Shown here: piece by piece, positions 6,765 to 19,273 of the stretch
Layout: the number at the start of each line of letters is the position of its first letter
Position numbering within the stretch: the stretch's first letter is position 1
From: a virus
DNA length: 61,289 nt
IMG/VR virus record: IMGVR_UViG_3300037297_000065
Location: 1-61,289 of that record
Direction: 5' to 3' (one strand)
The notes under the pieces: model-generated
Database searches by the model: none
The model's input: only the letters and a program-made list of their open reading frames with translations
Told to the model about the DNA's origin: nothing
Position numbers and translations under genes: made by a program

Positions 6765-7244
6765 TTGTCTGTTGGTATGAAGCGTGATACAATCCATTAT
6801 CAGATGCGAATAGCTAGCATCAATACCAACGGCAGCGCGGACAGTGACGCGCCTGGAAGCCACCACGAAGAGGAGCGACGCATTAATTACGGTTGATGCG
6901 TGTGTTGATAATTTGGGAGTGGACAGCACGGACGAAGAAAATAAGCCGAGCGGGTGCAATTCCCGCCCGTTGGTATGTTGAGTGATGCGAAAAAGCCCGT
7001 GACTGGTGAAGGCAAGCCGGGGACCTGGATCGGCGTTAGTAGGAAGTAACGCCCAAAAGAGCCTTAACTTTGGGTTTTGCGGAGTTCCCGCCTCAAAAAC
7101 TCCGGCCTTTAAAAACCGCCCGCGCGTGAGCATCTGGCTCTAGGCCATGCGCGCGGGCAATACTACGGAACTAATCGCCGTCGCCCTAGCTAATCACGTG
7201 AGCGGCGTAGTTCAAAAAGCGCCGGTGCGCACCGGCGCTCACAA

Positions 7245-7316
7245 TGCGGGATAGAGCAGAGCCAGCTCGTGAGGTTCATATCCTCAAGGTCGCAGGTTCA
7301 AATCCTGCTCCCGCAC
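7245..7316 (+). tRNA. tRNA-Met (anticodon CAT; could be Ile2 if lysidinylated)
   Basis: Hand-folded cloverleaf: acceptor TGCGGGA/TCCCGCA, D stem GAGC/GCTC, anticodon stem TGAGG/CCTCA with loop TTCATAT, T arm GCAGG-TTCAAAT-CCTGC; D-loop lacks GG. Confidence 0.85.
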
Positions 7317-7422
7317 TTATCGCGCAGCGGGATACCGCCGAAGCCGATGATGGAACGGCAATGGAGATACAGGCGGCCTAATGACTCCCGTCCATCTAAG
7401 GCGCGAGCATTGCGCAAGCAAG

Positions 7423-7452
7423 AAAAAATCCCGACGACGGTCGGGATTTTTT
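7423..7452. terminator. Bidirectional rho-independent terminator between convergent blocks
   Basis: A6-ATCCCGAC-GACG-GTCGGGAT-T6; lies between tRNA-Met (+) and stop of 7454..7741 (-). Confidence 0.75.
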
Positions 7453-7453
7453 A

Positions 7454-7741
7454 TTATTTAGAAGCTACACTCTCGCTCAACGAGGCTTCTAAATTTTTCG
7501 CGATCTCTTCCATATACTCTCTTGCAACAACTTCGTATTTTGCCGGAACACTAATCGTAAATGTCGCCGTTCCGTCTTGGTCAAATCTCATCGCCATTGG
7601 TTCGTGTCCGCGCTGGCGTTCATGTAGAAGCCACAAGAAAAACTCCGCGCGCGTTTGCGTCTGACTAAGTCGCGGCTCCATGCCGCTTAATTTCGAGTCT
7701 TGCGAGAGCGCAGGCTCGCGCCCGGTTAGTTTGTCGTTCAT
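7454..7741 (-). CDS. Hypothetical protein
   Basis: 95-aa ORF, last gene of leftward block. Confidence 0.5.
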   Translation of the reverse strand: MNDKLTGREPALSQDSKLSGMEPRLSQTQTRAEFFLWLLHERQRGHEPMAMRFDQDGTATFTISVPAKYEVVAREYMEEIAKNLEASLSESVASK

Positions 7742-7867
7742 TTTTTCACCTCAGATAGATCAAACAAGCGCTTGAGCGCTTCGCCGCCGCGTGTTTTTTC
7801 TTCATCATACCCACTGCCAAGTAGCGGGAAACTTATACCCGCGCCACCCATTCGAACAATCGGGACT

Positions 7868-8224
7868 TTAATCTATTTCAATTTCCCCAAAACTCATATA
7901 ATCAATATAATATCTACCATTCTGCATATCAGTGCGCAATGTTACAAATTTGCCCGACAATGATTTGTCTTCCGTAATCGGAACCTTTAACCATAAACTT
8001 GTTTGTGGCGCGCACGGCAGTGTTTCATCTGTGATGATATGAATATGCCATTTTTGAGTGTCGGGTACATCAACCCATCCCGTGACTGATATCGCGTTAC
8101 GAGACTCGTTATCAGGTGAATCAAAGCCGATACTGTTTATCTCAAATTTTGCATTCCATACTTGAAAACGGAGAGGGTTCATTTTGGGATGATAATTCAT
8201 TGAAAAGTAATTAGGTGCAATCAT
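7868..8224 (-). CDS. Hypothetical protein
   Basis: 118-aa ORF, co-directional with neighbours. Confidence 0.5.
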   Translation of the reverse strand: MIAPNYFSMNYHPKMNPLRFQVWNAKFEINSIGFDSPDNESRNAISVTGWVDVPDTQKWHIHIITDETLPCAPQTSLWLKVPITEDKSLSGKFVTLRTDMQNGRYYIDYMSFGEIEID

Positions 8225-8277
8225 TCTAGTTCTTCCTTTACGGTTTCGCTAGCGCTTCTTTTACTACACGCTGAATT

Positions 8278-8520
8278 TCATTCCTCGCCTTCCTTTTGCA
8301 CATAAATCTTCAGGCGGGGTTTAATGCCAAGCTCACTGACATTAAGTACGGCATCAATACCCAGCCATTTACCGTTCATTTTGATGCCAAGCATGTAGCC
8401 GCCGTCATGTGTATTCAATATGATTGACGCTTCGCCGGGGCCGGGATCGAATGGCACGATTTCGACACCGAGAAAATCGGCGATAGCGCGTATTGTTTCG
8501 TTATGTTTTTTCGCGGTCAT
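8278..8520 (-). CDS. Hypothetical protein
   Basis: 80-aa ORF; start overlaps upstream stop (ATGA). Confidence 0.5.
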   Translation of the reverse strand: MTAKKHNETIRAIADFLGVEIVPFDPGPGEASIILNTHDGGYMLGIKMNGKWLGIDAVLNVSELGIKPRLKIYVQKEGEE

Positions 8521-8705
8521 TCCTTACCTCGTAACTTCTTCTTGTCTAGCCAAAACACAAAAATCATCAACCAACGCAAAGTAATCGGCAATAGTATCAC
8601 GCTATACCCGGCCACAAGAATACTGTCCGCTCCTATATAGACCAGCAGGGGCAAAATCAGAATACTTGCCAAGTCTGTGCTTGCAAAAATTGTTGTTTTG
8701 CTCAT
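8517..8705 (-). CDS. Small membrane protein (2 TM)
   Basis: 62 aa, hydrophobic; C-terminus KKLRGKE; ATGA overlaps on both sides. Confidence 0.5.
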   Translation of the reverse strand: MSKTTIFASTDLASILILPLLVYIGADSILVAGYSVILLPITLRWLMIFVFWLDKKKLRGKE

Positions 8706-8977
8706 TCCTTACCTCGTAGTTTCTTCGCCATTTTGTAAAGTCGTTCATCGAGTGCGCCTCCGGTGGTGGCGACCAGCGGCAGAACGCGATCTCCGCGTGA
8801 CCACCAGACGCCGGTTTGTATCCACTGGCGCTGGACTATCACGCGCCAGATCATCGACGCGCTGACATTCTTGGATCGAATCACCCGCAGCCATAACATG
8901 CCGGCGGTACGGGTAAACGGCCCCTGTGCGGCAAATTGTAGACGGGCAAGCGCTTCGAGTTCAGATGGCGCAGGCAT
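8702..8977 (-). CDS. Hypothetical protein
   Basis: 91 aa; C-terminus KKLRGKE repeats that of next gene; start overlaps integrase stop. Confidence 0.45.
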   Translation of the reverse strand: MPAPSELEALARLQFAAQGPFTRTAGMLWLRVIRSKNVSASMIWRVIVQRQWIQTGVWWSRGDRVLPLVATTGGALDERLYKMAKKLRGKE

Positions 8978-9987
8978 TATTCCTCCACGCGCCTTAAGCG
9001 CGCCTCCAGGTCGCTCACATCGACGTGAGCGTAATAGTCTTTCGTCGTCTGTATGTCCATGTGCCCGATCACGTGCGCGATATCCTCCAGGCTCAGTCCA
9101 GCGCTGCGCAACCGCGTTGCCTTCCAGTGCCTAAAGTCGTGTGGCGTGATGTCACCGAGGCCAAGCGCGCGAGAGGCGCGCACCGTGACCCAGGACGCCA
9201 TTTGTCGGCTAAACGGCTCGCCGGCCTTACCCGGCTTGTGCCACACGAACAGCGGTTCGTTGTGGTCGGACGACGCACCGCGCGCTTCCATGTATTCGTC
9301 GATGAAAAACACCGCCTCGCGCAGCCACAGGTGATACTTATGGTTCTTCTTCCCGGTCACGAGCACGCGCCAGTAGCCGCCCTGCGCGGCCTGCTCCAGC
9401 GCCATCGGTGGAAAGTCACCGGTGCGCAGTGATAGTATCTCGGAGATGCGCCCACCGCTGTCGTGGAGCACGCGGATCAGCGCCGCGTCGCGTAGCCGGT
9501 CAAGCTCCCAGATGTGTAACTTGTCTTCTTTCAGATCATCGGGTGGCGTTAGGTCGCTGTGATAGGTTAGTAGACGCTCGATGCCTTCAGGGATTTCGGG
9601 CGGGCTGGTTTCAGGGTTGTAATCCGCCGCGTCGCCCACCACGTCGTCGAATGCCTCACTCATCTTCTCCATCGGCCAATCGCGGGGGAGGAGATCGTTA
9701 AGGGCGCACCATTCAAGAAAAGTTCTGACATCCACTACGTAGGCGCGGGCCGTGAGCGCCGACAGTCCGCGCTCACGTAGAAAAATCAAAAAGTTGGCGA
9801 GCAGGTTGACGCGCTCGCCGCTGTAGTCGGGTAGAGAGGTAGTAAAGCACACACGCGGATTATCGGCGTCGCCTGGGTCGCAGAAGTGCGCCAGAGCCGC
9901 GCGGTAGTGGCTTTGCGTGCCGGTGGCGCGTGACTTGACGCGGGGGGAGCGGAGGTATTCGTGGGTGAGGGAAAGGAGGTCAGCCAT
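8977..9987 (-). CDS. Tyrosine recombinase (XerC/D-like integrase)
   Basis: Catalytic signature GGRISE (Arg I), HDFRHWKATRL (H-x-x-R), VIGHMDIQTTKDYYAHV (His..Tyr); 336 aa. Confidence 0.9.
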   Translation of the reverse strand: MADLLSLTHEYLRSPRVKSRATGTQSHYRAALAHFCDPGDADNPRVCFTTSLPDYSGERVNLLANFLIFLRERGLSALTARAYVVDVRTFLEWCALNDLLPRDWPMEKMSEAFDDVVGDAADYNPETSPPEIPEGIERLLTYHSDLTPPDDLKEDKLHIWELDRLRDAALIRVLHDSGGRISEILSLRTGDFPPMALEQAAQGGYWRVLVTGKKNHKYHLWLREAVFFIDEYMEARGASSDHNEPLFVWHKPGKAGEPFSRQMASWVTVRASRALGLGDITPHDFRHWKATRLRSAGLSLEDIAHVIGHMDIQTTKDYYAHVDVSDLEARLRRVEE

Positions 9988-9990
9988 TTT

Positions 9991-10497
9991 CTATACTCGA
10001 AAATGATTACCTGAATAGACTTCAAATTCGTGCTCAACGATCTTTTTAACTAGGTCGAAGAACGCAATCCCGGTTTCGTCTGTACATTGCAGGCCGTTGT
10101 TTGCGCCAGGCCAACCCGCGATAACCCCGCGAAAGCCGGATGCATTAACCATTTCTTTTGGTGCATAAAAATATAGGCCAAGTTCGCATTTGAACATCTC
10201 AACCGATATCACAAAGCGTTCATCGGTTGACATAAGCGAAAAAAGGCGATTCTTATACATATCGGAGAAATCGACTTCTTTGGGTTCCGCGAGCCATAAT
10301 AGGCGATAGAGTCCTGCCGGGGTGTTAGTTGGTGCGTAGCTACCGCATTCAATATATTTTAAGTCACCACTGCGCACTGACGGCATGATTAAATCGCGGA
10401 TATAAGCCTCGACCGGATCGCCGCCGGACGCATAATGTTGATCCCAATTAAAGCCATCCTGAAGCATGGCTTCTACTCGCTGAATCTTTTCTATCAT
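9991..10497 (-). CDS. Hypothetical protein
   Basis: 168-aa ORF, 3 nt upstream of integrase. Confidence 0.55.
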   Translation of the reverse strand: MIEKIQRVEAMLQDGFNWDQHYASGGDPVEAYIRDLIMPSVRSGDLKYIECGSYAPTNTPAGLYRLLWLAEPKEVDFSDMYKNRLFSLMSTDERFVISVEMFKCELGLYFYAPKEMVNASGFRGVIAGWPGANNGLQCTDETGIAFFDLVKKIVEHEFEVYSGNHFRV

Positions 10498-10652
10498 ACT
10501 TTACTCCAATAGGGTAGGGGCTTGCGCCCATGCTTTCTATCACCGCCTCCATTATACCATTTTTTGCTTTTCATAGCAAAAGACAAAATCGTCCAAAACA
10601 CAGTGCGCGAACCACAGAATCAAAAACCGCGCCCTTTCGAGCGCGGCTCTTT

Positions 10653-12035
10653 TTACTCTGCGCAGAGTTCGTCTATCTGCGCGTCGTAGCTTCCAGGTGG
10701 CCCCATACCGCCCCAACGTCGCACTGTTCGCCTGCCATTTTCGTCAGTCCCGACGACAAAAGCGCCGTTTTCGGGCGGGTTGGCGGGTTGAACCCGGTTT
10801 CGACCGGGGGAAACCGGGGGCGCGGGTTGGGTTGGGTCTAGCGATTTTTGCGTTTTCGGCGGCTCGATGGACACGATTTCACCCTTCGGATAGTCGTAAG
10901 AAGTCGCCCACTTTGGACTCTGGATAATTTGCGAAACAGTCATGTGTTCCCCTACGTCATTCAGTGTCAACGTGTACGCCGCGCCAGTTCGCGGTTGATA
11001 CATGAATCCCATCTCGGCGAGCCATTTCGTCATGGTGCGCCAGGTCGGATCGGTTACGCCGGCGTGAGCGGTCATGCGGGCGCGCGAGTACCCCATTGGT
11101 TCGTCATCAATTTTGTGCTCGCCCCAACGCAGAAATGCAATCGCCGCGTTGCGCCATGCGGTACGGTGTGCTTGCTCCTGCCGCGCTTTCTCGGCGTCCT
11201 CCAGGTCCTCTTGCGTGTACACGCGCCCGGCAATGGTAATCTCACGCTCCGGTTCTGGCTCAGGCTCAGGCGCAGGAAGCGCCGGCCAATCATGCCCCGG
11301 CAGCGGCACCCATTCGCCGGCGTTGTTGTCGTATTGAAGGCCAAGCTCTTCGAGAATCATACGCCGGCGTACATCGATGGCGATAATCACGCTGAGCCAG
11401 CGTGCGCCGTACAGTAGTGCAACCAAGAACGCGCTAAAAACTACGGCGACTAACAGTATCCCGCCAACCAACTTAAAGATGTAATCGGTTTGGCGGTCGA
11501 TATCTGCCTGCTGAGCGACTTTAGCCGCTTGGTCGGCATCCACTTCGGCTTGCCTAGCCTCGGCGGATTTGATATTTGCTTCTGCCCCGTCGAGCGTAAC
11601 GACGATTGCCGTCTGCGTGATTTCCAACTCTCTGCCGTACAGCGCAATACTGCCCGCCGTCGCGGTCAATCCAACACTTACGGCCTGCTGCGTCGCGTTG
11701 GCGTTGTACTGCTCGACCTGGAGTGTGGCGGCAGCGCTGCGCTCCTCAGCTTTCAGCGTGGCATCGGCGGCGGCTTGCGTCGCCTGTACCTGAGCTTGCG
11801 CCGCCTGAGCCGCCAGCGCATCCGAAGCGCTGACGGTGTTCTGTTTATCGATAGCATCTTGCGTTGCAATCCAGGCGAGCGCCTGGGCCGTGCTCATGGC
11901 GTTGTCGGCCTCGATACCCGGCGCAAGTGCGCCCGACGGGACCGTGGCGTAAACAATAACCTGCTCTGCGGGCTGCATCACATCGCAGCCGGCCAACAAG
12001 AGAACCGAAGCGCACGCGAGTGCTAGCAGTTTCAT
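10653..12035 (-). CDS. Lipoprotein with Ala/Gln-rich coiled extracellular part, TM helix and C-terminal cytoplasmic domain
   Basis: MKLLALACASVLLLAGC lipobox; TM LVGGILLVAVVFSAFLVALLY; PEPEPEPE linker; start chosen at ATG 12035 (track used upstream GTG). Confidence 0.6.
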   Translation of the reverse strand: MKLLALACASVLLLAGCDVMQPAEQVIVYATVPSGALAPGIEADNAMSTAQALAWIATQDAIDKQNTVSASDALAAQAAQAQVQATQAAADATLKAEERSAAATLQVEQYNANATQQAVSVGLTATAGSIALYGRELEITQTAIVVTLDGAEANIKSAEARQAEVDADQAAKVAQQADIDRQTDYIFKLVGGILLVAVVFSAFLVALLYGARWLSVIIAIDVRRRMILEELGLQYDNNAGEWVPLPGHDWPALPAPEPEPEPEREITIAGRVYTQEDLEDAEKARQEQAHRTAWRNAAIAFLRWGEHKIDDEPMGYSRARMTAHAGVTDPTWRTMTKWLAEMGFMYQPRTGAAYTLTLNDVGEHMTVSQIIQSPKWATSYDYPKGEIVSIEPPKTQKSLDPTQPAPPVSPGRNRVQPANPPENGAFVVGTDENGRRTVRRWGGMGPPGSYDAQIDELCAE

Positions 12036-12115
12036 TTTCCCTTTTTCCACATATCGACGCCAATCACAAGAAACACAAGGCCAAAGAAAAACAAAATCAC
12101 TGGTATTATTTCCAT
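12032..12115 (-). CDS. Small TM peptide (27 aa)
   Basis: MEIIPVILFFFGLVFLVIGVDMWKKGK; TGA overlaps lipoprotein ATG (ATGA); below ORF-track cutoff. Confidence 0.3.
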   Translation of the reverse strand: MEIIPVILFFFGLVFLVIGVDMWKKGK

Positions 12116-12125
12116 CGTTTTATCC

Positions 12126-12479
12126 TTATTCTCCTAATTTCTTCATCGGCCGGATCCGCGCTGCCGCAAGTAAACTATTGGCGAAGTCTTCGGTCAGATC
12201 GGCGTCTTCCTCTCGCTCGGCGACGATCTGTACCGCGCCTGACTCCAGTTTCTCCAAAATCCGTAGTACCTGTGCCTGTTGCTCGGCAACCTGGCGCACC
12301 AGTTCATCGAGTTCTTGGCGTTCTTTGTCGCGCTCGGCGGCCAACGCTAAGGCGTCTGCAATAATGCCGCGCGTATCGCGTCCGGCGTCTTCCTGCTCGG
12401 CAAGATAGTCAAACGCCACCTGCTCTTTTTCGGGATGGAGTCGAAACGAGATAACGCGATTATACGCACGGCTAGACAT
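12126..12479 (-). CDS. Ribbon-helix-helix protein, ParR-like adaptor candidate
   Basis: N-terminus RVISFRLHPEKEQVAFDYL fits RHH beta-strand/helix; coiled C-part; ATG overlaps ParM stop (ATGTCTAG); gene order parM-parR. Confidence 0.5.
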   Translation of the reverse strand: MSSRAYNRVISFRLHPEKEQVAFDYLAEQEDAGRDTRGIIADALALAAERDKERQELDELVRQVAEQQAQVLRILEKLESGAVQIVAEREEDADLTEDFANSLLAAARIRPMKKLGE

Positions 12480-13512
12480 CAATGACTCCATTGGCTTCAT
12501 AGAAACGCGCCAACTTCATGCCACCGCGGACATTCGCCAGGTGCAGCGCATCCAGGTCGTCGGCGGGTAAAACGCGCCCGTGGTCGAGGATGGGCAGCAA
12601 TCTGTCATAAAGCGCCGCACTACCACCGCCAGTGAGAATGATGGTATCCCACCTGGCCGGCCCACCGGCGACCTCCTGGTAGGCGTTGGCAATACGATTG
12701 AGCACTAAGCCCGCCGCATTTGTTGCTTCGGTGTGACACGGGTACTCCCGGCCACCGCCCGTATACGCCCCGGTGCGCAGCGCGTCCCGTAGCCGGTTTG
12801 CCGGCACGGTCGTTGTACTCTTGAATATGTCGGCGTACCGGGCGCGCAAGTCACGCTCGAACGCGCGCATGACGTTTTGGATACCGACCTCCACGCTCTC
12901 ATTAACGGCGTAGTCTAGTTGGCCGCCACGCGCTACGGAGATCATGTCAGTTGTGAAGCCGCCGATGTCAATCACGAGACTTTCGCCGCCGTTGATGTCC
13001 GGTCGCGCATAGGCCAACCCGGAGTCTTTTAAAACGACGTTCATCAAGCCGCCCACCGGCTCGTCAAATGTCATTGCGCCGGCGACGGTAAACTTTGCGG
13101 TGCGTCCCTCGGTTTCGACGGTGTACTCTCCCACCGTCGCTTCGAGCAGATCATCGGCGTAGGTGATGTCTCGCGGCGCGTGGGATGCAAATACAAAAAC
13201 CCGCCCGCCACGTTTGTAAAGCTGCGCAAGAGAAATAGCCGTGAGGATATCGTAGTACCCTTTCTGATAACGCGCTGCGCCGGAGCGCCGCTGTACCGGG
13301 CCACGCTTCTCGGCCATTTCGCCGTAAGCAAACGGTGTGCCATTGACGCGGGCATAGCCGGCGGGCGGATTGTCGCGCGAGTGCGCCATGATCTGATTCC
13401 ACTCTGCGGTGGATAGCTCGGCGAGGGCATGGGACCAAACGGCCTCACGGCTCGCGGCGCGGGCTTTTATGTCGCTGTTGCCCGCGTCCAAAACGACGAT
13501 ATTCGCGCTCAT
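12472..13512 (-). CDS. parM: Actin-like ATPase of the ParM/StbA family
   Basis: Phosphate-1 VVLDAGNSDIK, phosphate-2 VIDIGGFTTD, adenosine ILTGGGSAAL; start set at MSANIVV (SD CAGGAGG upstream), not the longer track ORF. Confidence 0.8.
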   Translation of the reverse strand: MSANIVVLDAGNSDIKARAASREAVWSHALAELSTAEWNQIMAHSRDNPPAGYARVNGTPFAYGEMAEKRGPVQRRSGAARYQKGYYDILTAISLAQLYKRGGRVFVFASHAPRDITYADDLLEATVGEYTVETEGRTAKFTVAGAMTFDEPVGGLMNVVLKDSGLAYARPDINGGESLVIDIGGFTTDMISVARGGQLDYAVNESVEVGIQNVMRAFERDLRARYADIFKSTTTVPANRLRDALRTGAYTGGGREYPCHTEATNAAGLVLNRIANAYQEVAGGPARWDTIILTGGGSAALYDRLLPILDHGRVLPADDLDALHLANVRGGMKLARFYEANGVIDV

Positions 13513-13554
13513 ACGCGCCTCCTGTTTACGTTTGTCGATTACAAATGTATACGA

Positions 13555-13583
13555 AGTGTAGCACGCGCGGGCCGGCGTGTCAA
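13555..13583 (-). promoter_or_regulatory. Sigma-70-like promoter of the parM operon
   Basis: TTGACA-17 nt-TACACT on minus strand; imperfect palindrome ACGTTTGTCGATTACAAATGT (13528-13548) between -10 and SD. Confidence 0.6.
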
Positions 13584-13588
13584 GAATC

Positions 13589-13618
13589 AAAAAAAGCCCC
13601 ACCGTGTTGGGCGGGGCT
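13589..13618 (-). terminator. Rho-independent terminator after pentapeptide gene
   Basis: Minus strand GCCCCGCC-CAACAC-GGTGGGGC followed by T7. Confidence 0.7.
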
Positions 13619-13627
13619 ACTTGCGGG

Positions 13628-14065
13628 TTATTCGATCTCCTTCGCCGCTTCCTGTGCAACCTTTGGCGCACTTTCGACGCCGAACGGTTTTAGTGAGGCG
13701 TATACCCAGCGACGTAAATCGTCGGGAATATCTAATGCTGTCATTTTGCTCCAGCACCAATCTCGTGACACGAGCACGAGTCCTGCGATCCCGCGTTTTT
13801 GCCAGTCGTTCCCGGCAGCCTGCCGGAGAACTTCGGCAATTAGGTCGTGTGATTGCCAATTCAGTTTCACCCTGCTGAGATTTGCCCCGTTCAGTTTCAC
13901 CCCGCTGAGGTTCGCGCGCCAGAGGGCCGCCTCGCTGAGGTTCACCCCACTAAGGTTCGCCTCGCTGAGGTTCGCCTTGCTGAGGTCCGCACGGACTCCC
14001 TCCTCTTCACCCCGTAGCCATAAACCGTGTTTCCTTACGATTTCACCTATTTTATTTTCGGTCAT
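13628..14065 (-). CDS. Pentapeptide-repeat protein
   Basis: ADLSK ANLSE ANLSG VNLSE AALWR ANLSG VKLNG ANLSR VKLN consecutive pentads; 15-nt periodicity in DNA 13860-13990. Confidence 0.9.
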   Translation of the reverse strand: MTENKIGEIVRKHGLWLRGEEEGVRADLSKANLSEANLSGVNLSEAALWRANLSGVKLNGANLSRVKLNWQSHDLIAEVLRQAAGNDWQKRGIAGLVLVSRDWCWSKMTALDIPDDLRRWVYASLKPFGVESAPKVAQEAAKEIE

Positions 14066-14160: not shown

Positions 14161-14556
14161 TTAGACGTTGCCGTTTTCAACCTGACGTTCTGCCCAGTTT
14201 TTGAGATATTCCGCCACGTCCGGTGGCGTCATGGCGTCGCCGAAGTGATTCAACGGTGCGTCGTCTTCGCTGTCGATCATAGCTGAAATCTGTACCGTGA
14301 GTTTATCCACGTGTATTGCATTGATTTCATTGGCGGTAAGATTAGGCACGAATGCCTCAACTAAACGTTCTTCGCAGTCCCATCGATCCGAGGGTTGATA
14401 TTTTGGCATTTCATTTCTCCTTATTTCTTGCTGATACATTCTGTCTATTGCTGCTTCCACAATATCGGTCATTGTGCCCCACCCTGCGTCTTGCAGGGCG
14501 TCGAGTTGCCCGCGCGTGGCGGGCAATAGTCGGATGGTGGTTCTGTGGCGGGTCAC
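14161..14556 (-). CDS. Hypothetical protein (possible RHH N-terminus)
   Basis: 131-aa ORF; TIRLLPATRGQLDAL.. strand-helix pattern. Confidence 0.5.
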   Translation of the reverse strand: MTRHRTTIRLLPATRGQLDALQDAGWGTMTDIVEAAIDRMYQQEIRRNEMPKYQPSDRWDCEERLVEAFVPNLTANEINAIHVDKLTVQISAMIDSEDDAPLNHFGDAMTPPDVAEYLKNWAERQVENGNV

Positions 14557-17854: not shown

Positions 17855-19273
17855 CTAGTCTTCGAAATAGCTCATGTCTTGTGACTCTTCCTCAAACATA
17901 ACAGGCTGTCCGTGCTCGTCACGCGGGAAGTGTTTATCGAGTACACTTTTTGCATTATCACCGTCCGATTCATTCCACTCCTTGATGAGCGCACTCACCG
18001 CTTCGTCTGGCGTCGCGTTCGTCAGGTCGAGATTCGAGCGCTCGATTACGGCTCGCGCTTCTTCTACGCGCGCCTCCAGTCCGTCGCTTACAATCAGTTC
18101 GTCGCACATAGTCACGGCACGAGTGAGCAAGTCGGTGTGTTTGCCAAACCACGCCACGACGCCGCAAGCGGTTTTTGGATCGTTGGAATAGTCGGCGATG
18201 TCATCGACGCCCAGGGCAAAAAGTGCTTCGAGTTTGGATATGCCCTTGTTGATACAGAAGTCGGTGAATTTTTGTAGGTTTTCCTCATTTTCTGACCAGT
18301 GTGGGATAGGGATCGCCGTTGTGATTGTCGCTTGCGGTTCTTCGACAATTTCGCCGGTGTCGTTATCGACGATATAGTCATCTTCGCCGCTTGCTAACAT
18401 GGGTGTACCGCCCGCCTCAAGCAGTGCGGTTTCTTGCAAACCCGCCAAGCGCGCCTCAACCCAGGTTTGTTCAACTTCAATGAAAAGTAACCACTTTTTA
18501 TAGCGCTTGCGCTTGCCTTCTTTTGTCGGCGTCGATATTTCTTTTTCCACACGACGCAACACCATCGGGATACCTGTCAAGCGACCAGCGAGTTGTTTAA
18601 TCGCTGCGAGATTGGCGCTAATGTTCTTCAGATCGTAGACACTTGTTGTATGAACCGTCATATACCCAAGTCTCGCCAGTTCTGGCAGGATAACACGCAG
18701 TCGGCCAACCGGCTTGCATCGACGCTTTTTGTCTTGATGATCTTTCAGCAGGCACGGTTGCCCGCGCTCCGACGGTGGATAATGCACCACTTCGCCGTCG
18801 CATCGGTGGAGTAGTTGCCCGGCACTATATGCCTCGCGCCAGGCATCAAAGCATTGATCTATATCGTCATACGGAAGCATGATACGAATCGCGCGGGGTT
18901 CGTTTCCGTAAATTTCTTTGAAGCGCGTTGGGCTGTTCGTGTCGGTATCATTGAATTCAACCCGAAAATAGTCTAAGTCCTTTCCGGGGCGATTTTCTCC
19001 TTTTGGCGCGCCTTTTCGGATATGGCCGATTTCTGGGAAACCGGCTGCGCGTGTCGTCAAACCTTTGATTGGCATAGTCAAATCTCCATCTCTAATTAGT
19101 TGTTCTTGTTCGTGAATTTCTGCCTGAGCAGTCGCCCAAGCCCGCTGTAGCGTATCTTGTATGTTGTCGCCCGGCTCAAGCTCAACGGTAAGACTAGCGA
19201 AAGCATCACGACTTTCGTAGTTTCCCACGTTGATTTTTGCCGAGCGGCTTACAGTGATTTGTGCAATTCTCAT
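17855..19273 (-). CDS. Early protein, possibly phiC31 gp3-like (RDF-like family)
   Basis: 472 aa; GHIRKGAPKGENRPGKDLDYFRVEF..YGNEPRAIRIMLPY resembles the G-x-IR-x-G..P..LD-x-FR motif recalled for that family. Confidence 0.4.
   Translation of the reverse strand: MRIAQITVSRSAKINVGNYESRDAFASLTVELEPGDNIQDTLQRAWATAQAEIHEQEQLIRDGDLTMPIKGLTTRAAGFPEIGHIRKGAPKGENRPGKDLDYFRVEFNDTDTNSPTRFKEIYGNEPRAIRIMLPYDDIDQCFDAWREAYSAGQLLHRCDGEVVHYPPSERGQPCLLKDHQDKKRRCKPVGRLRVILPELARLGYMTVHTTSVYDLKNISANLAAIKQLAGRLTGIPMVLRRVEKEISTPTKEGKRKRYKKWLLFIEVEQTWVEARLAGLQETALLEAGGTPMLASGEDDYIVDNDTGEIVEEPQATITTAIPIPHWSENEENLQKFTDFCINKGISKLEALFALGVDDIADYSNDPKTACGVVAWFGKHTDLLTRAVTMCDELIVSDGLEARVEEARAVIERSNLDLTNATPDEAVSALIKEWNESDGDNAKSVLDKHFPRDEHGQPVMFEEESQDMSYFED

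Follow-up and report, generated by a model that had tools for sequence, protein, structure and literature searches.

A ParMRC-like segregation cassette with a family-wide operator in the genome of a tailed phage that may be a plasmid prophage

The complete IMG/VR virus record IMGVR_UViG_3300037297_000065 (61,289 bp; here, the window, that is, the whole stretch of DNA that was analyzed) carries a 127-bp direct terminal repeat at its ends and represents a tailed phage that, in its leftward gene block (approximately 21.3 to 7.4 kb), encodes an actin-like ATPase followed by a small putative adaptor protein, a membrane peptide, a lipoprotein and, further downstream, a tyrosine recombinase. The identification of the ATPase gene, the adaptor gene and a palindrome in their leader as a partition cassette of the ParMRC type is well supported, and we consider it very probably correct. 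The best single reading of the locus, to which we assign a probability of about 0.5, is that this cassette maintains the phage as a plasmid prophage, with the recombinase acting as a resolvase.

The ATPase matches the PHROG family phrog_691, annotated as 'partition protein', with an E-value of 5e-28 and PF21522 with an E-value of 9e-10, over the cut-off; PF17989 (Alp N-terminal domain) scores slightly under its cut-off, and the two top-ranking NCBIfam models, PRTRC protein D and plasmid segregation protein ParM (PRK13917), are both far under theirs. No MreB, FtsA or actin family of Pfam matches the ATPase at E ≤ 0.1. When a profile of 34 relatives was compared with the PDB, the sole match was pSK41 ParM (3js6; E 1.3e-6), aligned over the full length (residues 3–337), and tblastn detected ParM/StbA genes at 22–29% identity on plasmids of Bacillus (22–26%), Acinetobacter and Xanthomonas. 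A search of 5.8 billion proteins yielded, among the candidates scored, 312 relatives of the ATPase, mostly about 50% identical and 343–346 aa long; those that are named carry the label 'ParM/StbA family protein'. All 64 family-invariant residues are kept in the ATPase, including the DxGN, DIGGxTTD and LTGGG motifs with their invariant nucleotide-binding positions (D9/G11/N12, D182–G185/T187–D189 and G295–G297, respectively). Thus the three ParM phosphate and adenosine motifs that the original prediction, made from the DNA alone, had read in this protein are all intact, and clustering with actin-like proteins outside segregation, which that prediction had named as grounds for abandoning it, is not what is seen in the comparison with hidden Markov model (HMM) libraries, the basis of this class assignment.

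Loci with parM were collected from GTDB genomes (47), IMG/VR (1) and JGI metagenomes (80). In a tree built from 83 full-length ParM proteins, the ParM of the window pairs with that of L071 (support 0.998), and then with L003. L071 and another contig, L072, are fragments of a related phage, and it is on such a fragment that the closest ParM (64% identity) is encoded.

Clustering of the neighbors of parM in these relatives delineated a family of proteins of approximately 105–130 aa that are encoded directly 3′ of parM, and an HMM of this downstream partner matches the product of window positions 12126–12500 with an E-value of 6e-13. Among 127 related loci, this partner of approximately 110 aa directly follows parM in 85 of the 93 that are evaluable. 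In the window, the most likely start of the partner gene, judging from the sequence, is the ATG at 12479, which has its own GGAG and creates an 8-nt overlap with the parM stop. The alignment of the partner family begins with a conserved, strand-like N-terminal M-S-x-V-x-S-F-R-L segment, followed by two helices and a variable linker, and ends with the conserved motif L-S-x-x-F-x-x-S-V-K-K-A-x-x-P-G; F99, in the conserved C-terminal helix, is invariant. The AlphaFold model of the partner (predicted local distance difference test (pLDDT) score 80) consists of an extended N-terminus, helices 16–31 and 36–79, a linker and helix 97–108, which is how the monomer of a ribbon-helix-helix (RHH) adaptor with a ParM-binding tail would be expected to look. 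Foldseek and PDB profile searches with the partner retrieved no RHH or ParR match but only coiled-coil noise, a monomer model being unable to show a dimeric ribbon. Hence, of the translationally coupled RHH protein proposed originally, the coupling and the conservation of the partner stand, and the RHH fold is left with no match in structure searches.

The leader of parM in the relatives, approximately 80 nt long, contains one or two 16-bp palindromes, GT(T/A)TAC-N4-GTA(A/T)AC, with a spacing of 23 bp. The first set of loci amounts to 513 kb of DNA, in which the motif occurs 45 times with at most one mismatch, and 42 of these copies are located no more than 120 nt upstream of parM; in the larger set, at least one box is present upstream of parM in 80 of the 98 evaluable loci, and two boxes are found in 60. 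Within the 61-kb genome of the window, the family motif, GTWTAC-N4-GTAWAC, occurs as a single copy at ≤1 mismatch, namely, at 13552–13537 (one mismatch); the number expected by chance at ≤2 mismatches is 5.6. A half box ending in GTAAAC abuts this box, bringing the total to about 1.5 boxes, and the hexamers GTATAC, GTAATC and GTAAAC start at 0, +10 and +23 of the resulting imperfect palindrome (13552–13524). The same compressed arrangement is present in L072, the fragment of the nearest relative, after the same terminator and TTGACA promoter and ahead of the Shine-Dalgarno sequence. The shorter palindrome at 13528–13548, previously proposed as a candidate parC or operator, is not a product of chance: it forms the core of the 29-bp one and is the local form of the family-wide site, placed where an autorepressor would bind. 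The proposed check for iterated ParR-binding repeats found none in the window, nor any iteron array or second site. A different leader is seen in L003, the third-closest ParM locus, where at least 8 repeats of the CACATAC/ACATAC type, distributed to either side of a TTGACA-17-TACAAT promoter over approximately 190 bp (L003:980–1170), replace the two palindromes in a layout that resembles the parC of the R1 type.

The par genes are apparently insulated from their surroundings. The upstream pentapeptide-repeat gene ends at 13628, and the strong predicted terminator at 13618–13595 would both end this gene and insulate the par unit. It is followed by the consensus-like promoter noted originally, which at 13583–13555 on the minus strand is the top-scoring sigma-70-like site within 6.5–14.3 kb; AGGAGG precedes the parM ATG at 13512. 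L072 has the same terminator-promoter layout, with TTGACA-17-TATCAT in the same place. At the other end, because a predicted terminator (10646–10622) and a second promoter (10579–10551) lie between the lipoprotein gene and the 168-aa gene, the par genes (parM, parR, peptide and lipoprotein) and the 168-aa and recombinase genes more likely form two transcription units. Accordingly, the single leftward operon drawn in the original prediction is not borne out, even though the transmembrane (TM) peptide, the lipoprotein and the 168-aa protein that it listed are all where it placed them. With a promoter, an operator and flanking terminators of its own, the par cassette would be expressed independently of the lytic cascade, which argues for a role in the maintenance of a plasmid prophage.

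Under that reading, the region from 13.62 to 10.62 kb would be a self-contained type II (ParMRC-like) segregation cassette that was taken up by a temperate tailed phage, has an insulating terminator at either end, and is driven by its own near-consensus promoter. The RHH-like ParR would bind the GTATAC/GTAAAC boxes between the −10 element and the Shine-Dalgarno sequence, thereby repressing the operon and marking the DNA, and its conserved C-terminal helix would recruit the actin-like ParM, whose filaments would push sister phage genomes apart, most likely so that a circular plasmid prophage of low copy number is inherited stably. Multimers would be resolved by the tyrosine recombinase, which is transcribed separately, as has been suggested for the Bacillus phages B83, IEBH and their relatives. 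Such a toolkit, actin-type segregation together with a Xer-like recombinase in extrachromosomal prophages, on which the original prediction had drawn, is established in the literature (PMC8026635, PMC6669507). Most of the experimentally known circular plasmid prophages carry one or two Xer-related tyrosine recombinases, and several groups of Bacillus cereus plasmid prophages combine a protein resembling ParM with an RHH adaptor and a Xer-family recombinase (PMC8026635). In B83, ParM (ORF32), the RHH adaptor (ORF31) and a XerC-like protein (ORF33) are encoded by adjacent genes (PMC6669507); a ParM-like protein with an RHH adaptor is found in B83, in IEBH and in numerous plasmid prophages of B. 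cereus, usually accompanied by a Xer-family recombinase (PMC8026635, PMC6669507, PMC11526630).

Table 1 Features of the par and recombinase units and their surroundings in the window
Feature	Coordinates	Strand	Characteristics
Three CGTTGGTAT-type 9-mers	6770–6976	6770 +, 6823 −, 6968 +	In an ORF-free region
Five small open reading frames (ORFs) (91, 62, 80, 118, 95 aa) 3′ of the recombinase gene	7454–8977	−	91-aa ORF coupled by TAATG
Tyrosine recombinase, 336 aa	8977–9987	−	PF00589 (E 1e-19), SAM-like N-domain; phrog_216 and phrog_1, integrase
168-aa protein	9991–10497	−	Stop 3 nt before the recombinase ATG
Second putative sigma-70-type promoter	10551–10579	−	TTGCTA-17-TATAAT, TG-extended; 10/12 consensus matches
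Putative intrinsic terminator ending the par unit	10622–10646	−	CCGCGC-TCGAAAG-GGCGCGG (hairpin 10646–10627) + TTTTT
Lipoprotein, 460 aa	10653–12035	−	LAGC lipobox, A/Q-rich outer part, one TM helix, 245-aa cytoplasmic part
Single-TM peptide, 27 aa	12031–12114	−	Read from the sequence; ATGA coupling (TGA overlaps the lipoprotein ATG)
ParR-like adaptor, 117 aa	12126–12479	−	RHH-like N-terminus, long helix, linker, conserved C-terminal helix
ParM-like actin-fold ATPase, 346 aa	12472–13512	−	phrog_691, PF21522, pSK41 ParM profile match
Operator / candidate parC	13524–13552		29-bp imperfect palindrome between the −10 box and the Shine-Dalgarno sequence
Putative sigma-70-type promoter of the par unit	13555–13583	−	TTGACA-17-TACACT, TG-extended; 10/12 consensus matches
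Putative intrinsic terminator	13595–13618	−	9-bp stem with 7 GC pairs, T7 run

The distribution of the family complicates the interpretation of the cassette. Of all the proteins encoded in the window, only ParM recurs across the collected loci; by tblastn, the partner was detected in two loci and a Gp3-like protein in one. A gene of the HTH_17 family (excisionase/MerR-type) is located just upstream of parM in 47 of 84 loci and is absent from the window. The parM matches in GTDB come nearly all from metagenome-assembled genomes (MAGs) of Anaerolineae/Chloroflexota, at least 12 of them on contigs of 0.1–3.07 Mb, and one match from the JGI metagenomes is on a 1.3-Mb contig. The neighbors of the chromosomal ParMR genes encode a MalK-like ABC ATPase, a major facilitator superfamily (MFS) transporter, an esterase, a glycosidase, a histidine kinase, a radical-SAM enzyme, BREX BrxL and a type I methylase. 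In six MAGs (L011, L012, L014, L016, L019 and L020; approximately 9900–11400 in each), parM-parR occupies one shared chromosomal position, between a pectinacetylesterase-like gene with a phosphodiester glycosidase gene and an MFS transporter gene, with one GTATAC-N4-GTATAC box upstream in each case; the impression is of a chromosomal ParMR that filamentous bacteria inherit stably, comparable to those in the cParM and CorMR reports. In three other loci (L013:11761–13431, L007:12569–13375 and L010:11394–12971), a chromosomal ParMR with the upstream HTH_17 gene adjoins defense genes (BREX BrxL, a weak BrxA-like match and a type I HsdM methylase), which suggests a location at the edges of genomic or defense islands. 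The sole parM relative in IMG/VR (47% identity) is on the 81-kb contig L002 (9992–11026, 12253–13416), where its neighbors include a MazG-like and a TnpB/IS605 OrfB-type gene; the 141-aa gene downstream of it falls outside the ParR cluster.

Conceivably, then, the ParMR of the window is a recently captured, promiscuous mobile passenger with little or no role in the phage, or else a lysogenic-conversion module that acts on the host cell, with a cytoskeletal or membrane function shared with the lipoprotein, much as a chromosomal ParMR has been repurposed into CorMR in filamentous cyanobacteria. We consider this improbable. The only genes common to the window and 126 related loci are parM and parR, with all flanks differing, and the chromosomal copies are syntenic in the six MAGs, which speaks for this reading; furthermore, other roles have been reported for chromosomal ParMs (PMC12270681; bioRxiv 10.1101/2025.06.27.661541). 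The base composition points the same way: parM and the lipoprotein and recombinase genes have a GC content of 60–61% (66–75% at third codon positions), against a genome mean of 51.7%, and alternate with genes below the mean, those for the 168-aa protein (46%), the TM peptide (36%) and the 118-aa ORF (38%), so that 8977–13512 is a GC mosaic. However, all the invariant residues of ParM are intact and, because the closest ParM comes from a related phage fragment with the same leader, a Gp3-like gene upstream and the same membrane-protein family downstream, the ParMR module is stably kept within this phage lineage.

The recombinase is the second element on which the lifestyle of the phage hinges. 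It contains PF02899 over residues 65–95, PF00589 over residues 163–323 and approximately 60 extra N-terminal residues, and the catalytic motifs HxxR (HDFRH), GH and Y can be read in the translation, so that the enzyme is probably active. The XerC, XerA and XerD models rank first, albeit far under their cut-offs: XerC scores 79 bits (cut-off 335), XerD 74 (330), XerA 78 (220) and XerS 54 (267). The protein is thus a generic two-domain tyrosine recombinase rather than a Xer ortholog; the XerC/D type assigned to it originally survives as the best-ranking models, not as a score (about 79 bits against 330–335), and the accompanying caveat that it could be a true integrase stands. Close relatives are rare: one cluster shares at least 90% identity with it (contigs of 3–67 kb), and the remainder are at most 41% identical. 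The homologs in Anaerolineae genomes, one per genome at 33–40% identity, are probably the host Xer proteins and as such uninformative, and a search of IMG/VR with a degenerate DNA pattern for the recombinase motif gave no matches. Among the distant relatives, P0124, P0125 and P0127 (36–44% identity) are proteins of approximately 490 aa in which an N-terminal TIR domain is fused to the tyrosine recombinase. The 168-aa protein encoded upstream has no match in Pfam, PHROG or NCBIfam.

Downstream of the recombinase gene, the run of five small ORFs, none with family matches, ends at a bidirectional terminator (7420–7455). The 91-aa ORF, read by eye as an excisionase-type helix-turn-helix protein, was rejected as such by an HTH_17-like profile, Pfam and PHROGs. 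A 25-nt junction sequence is repeated at 8517–8541 and 8702–8726 (92% identical), at two consecutive gene boundaries, endowing two of the small ORFs with a shared K-K-L-R-G-K-E C-terminus and a Shine-Dalgarno-ATGA coupling signal. Beyond this run, the sequence CGTTGGTAT occurs in two exact copies, the only ones in the genome, and one copy with one mismatch, all inside 207 bp; these are candidate recombinase arm or resolution sites. A tRNA-Met gene at 7245–7316, near this cluster, is a candidate target of the recombinase or attP.

These features are also what one would expect of an integrative temperate phage, the main alternative, which we regard as possible but rather unlikely: the recombinase would be a true integrase whose attP lies within the non-coding/tRNA region at 6.77–7.45 kb, and ParMR would position or transport the replicating phage DNA after induction or infection, in the manner of AlpAC. 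The recombinase indeed matches PHROG integrase families while staying under the Xer cut-offs, and the layout is lambda-like, with the end of the late genes followed by the ORF-free region with the three sites and tRNA-Met, the small ORFs and int. A precedent is available: in the integrated prophage CGP3, the actin-like protein AlpC, the adaptor AlpA and the DNA site alpS are reported to be needed for efficient viral DNA replication (PMC4446434, PMC5539076). The existence of chromosomal ParMR cassettes of the same family is compatible with this scenario as well. Yet no excisionase (Xis-like) was recognized by the Pfam, PHROG and HTH_17-like profile searches and no CI/Cro-type repressor by family searches among the phage proteins. 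The tRNA-Met gene is a full gene, only 77–88% identical to Anaerolineae tRNA-Met genes, with no identity extending past the gene, that is, generic tRNA similarity with no host match outside the tRNA itself, and was rejected as attP; so was a tRNA-like remnant at 17.0–17.1 kb, which matched nothing. No integrated relative turned up in 401 Anaerolineae genomes, and the presumed capsid protein used as the query had no match in PLSDB or INPHARED either; this query matched nothing anywhere, so the result says little. Finally, an insulated, self-regulated cassette suits expression in a lysogen better than an early lytic function.

The lack of a recognizable repressor could also be taken as a sign of a strictly lytic phage, in which an actin-like filament would organize the infected cell and the recombinase would serve genome processing, for example, concatemer resolution. 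Some lytic phages do use cytoskeletal proteins. We nevertheless find this highly improbable, considering that the small regulators that escape recognition leave ample room for a repressor, that terminators insulate the cassette from the early operon, and that a tyrosine recombinase combined with a partition cassette is a temperate signature (PMC8026635).

Several considerations weigh against the preferred reading, in which ParMR maintains a plasmid prophage. The ParMR family is common on Anaerolineae chromosomal contigs (0.1–3 Mb), so that the cassette alone would not be diagnostic of a plasmid; the frequency of chromosomal copies weakens the equation of ParM with an episome, and chromosome-encoded ParMs have been described (PMC12270681). 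The RHH fold of ParR is not confirmed by structure search, and about 1.5 boxes with no iteron array are fewer than in classical parC sites. The recombinase is far under the Xer cut-offs, and its own promoter, the trailing small ORFs, and the nearby clustered repeats and tRNA gene also look like an int-attP module. The phage molecule was assembled as a circle with an arbitrary break (the first and last ORFs of the genome run off the contig ends, the break lying inside a gene), and a circular assembly fits an episome, a replicative form or circularly permuted headful-packaged virion DNA equally well. Little can be drawn from the negative prophage search, given a capsid query with no match anywhere. 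The sequences show the homology, the order and coupling of the genes, the conservation of the operator and the integrity of the catalytic motifs; the binding of ParR to the boxes, segregation by filaments, the episomal state and the role of the resolvase are inferred.

The lipoprotein gives the par unit a component beyond ParM and ParR. HMMER searches against 1.84 billion representatives retrieved approximately 12 relatives of 400–460 aa that share its layout: a lipobox, a low-complexity outer part, a TM helix and a conserved cytoplasmic domain. In the window protein, this domain (residues ~273–380) is winged-helix-like: the model (pLDDT 79; >90 over model residues 61–180) has structural matches nearly all of which are winged-helix proteins (DtxR-like, Cdt1, MarR, IscR, PadR and IclR; Z 5.3–7.1, model residues 59–166), predictions that are middling in score but uniform in kind. 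An ESM Atlas search with the lipoprotein gave no usable match. In L071, the sole collected locus with a gene of this family, the gene downstream of parM-parR encodes a membrane protein, and the cytoplasmic domain of this protein can be aligned with that of the window lipoprotein (28% identity, E 3e-6). We know of no precedent for a membrane-anchored, possibly DNA-binding protein co-transcribed with ParMR, and its role in the par unit is speculative. The co-transcribed TM and winged-helix-like protein is kept 3′ of parMR in the nearest phage relative, and the par unit might be a three-part machine rather than a classical ParMRC, in which the lipoprotein would hold the phage episome, or else the complex of ParR with DNA, at the membrane and provide a fixed anchor for ParM filaments; we give this slim odds. 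If true, a phage of filamentous Chloroflexota would possess an actin-type system for partition, or for a replication site, that is anchored in the membrane.

As for the rest of the genome, the rightward block encodes a DnaB-like helicase, a weak O/DnaD-like initiator, terminase and portal, so that full sets of virion, packaging and replication genes are present on one replicon with ParMR, a combination expected of phage-plasmids. A near-identity DNA search of INPHARED with 8977–13700 gave zero matches. In the leftward block, upstream of the par unit, the 472-aa protein encoded at 17855–19273 (−) matches PF18897 (Gp3-like, recombination directionality factor-like; E 1e-35) and is 46% identical to its counterpart in the related phage fragment (L072:2286–3686), an early gene located upstream of parM; no serine integrase was noticed in the phage alongside it. 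Single-protein scans of IMG/VR and GTDB genomes with ParM, the recombinase and the Gp3-like protein gave no matches, and neither did a two-sequence alignment of the Gp3-like proteins. The N-terminus of the 131-aa protein encoded at 14161–14556 (−), which has no Pfam or PHROG match, reads as RHH-like (T-T-I-R-L-L and two short helices), making this protein a possible Arc/CopG-type regulator.

The closest parallels to the window are the Bacillus plasmid prophages (vB_BtS_B83, IEBH, Bp8p-C and the B. cereus sensu lato groups of PMC8026635), which likewise are tailed-phage genomes in which an actin-like ATPase is followed by a small adaptor of the RHH type (putatively so in the window), with a putative centromere at the start of the operon, a tyrosine recombinase with Xer top models, their own replication initiator and helicase, and the partition genes on the strand opposite to the late genes. 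The differences are substantial. At 22–26% identity to the Bacillus plasmid ParM/StbA genes, the window ATPase is related to them at the superfamily level only, and its family is centered on Anaerolineae/Chloroflexota MAGs; the window site is a compact palindrome rather than the iteron region described in Bacillus; and the window co-transcribes a membrane-anchored winged-helix protein and has a plasmid state that is putative. Among solved structures, the best relative of the ATPase family, very distant in sequence, is that of Staphylococcus aureus pSK41 ParMRC (type II). In pSK41, ParR is an RHH protein encoded downstream of parM, and the centromere lies upstream of parM. The pSK41 parC consists of several direct repeats, in contrast to the one 29-bp imperfect palindrome of the window, and the window family is known from sequence alone; context for pSK41 ParMRC is given in PMC4911067. 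The AlpAC/alpS system of Corynebacterium glutamicum CGP3 is similar in that a phage actin-like protein is combined with a DNA-binding adaptor and a site near the operon, but CGP3 is an integrated prophage in which AlpC acts in replication and transport once induction has occurred; the likeness drawn here is one of organization (PMC4446434, PMC5539076). The chromosomal ParMR systems (cParM of Desulfitobacterium and Clostridium; CorMR of Anabaena) have the same ParM-ParR organization outside plasmids, whereas a phage genome carries the copy in the window and phage fragments carry the nearest relatives of that copy, even as many members of the family are chromosomal in filamentous Anaerolineae.

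Thus the kind of system is known, and the family, the operator and the membrane partner are its new details. The analysis delimits a large, previously unnamed ParM/ParR family that numbers over 300 proteins and whose operator motif is sharply conserved, which offers a handle for the biochemistry of ParR-box binding and filament dynamics, and raises the question of what role the many chromosomal ParMR copies play in filamentous bacteria. To our knowledge, no phage-plasmid is known for Chloroflexota. If the phage is episomal, plasmid prophages of the ParM type would extend from Firmicutes to a phage that shares its partition genes with Anaerolineae (Chloroflexota), a lineage to which its host is assigned only by inference.

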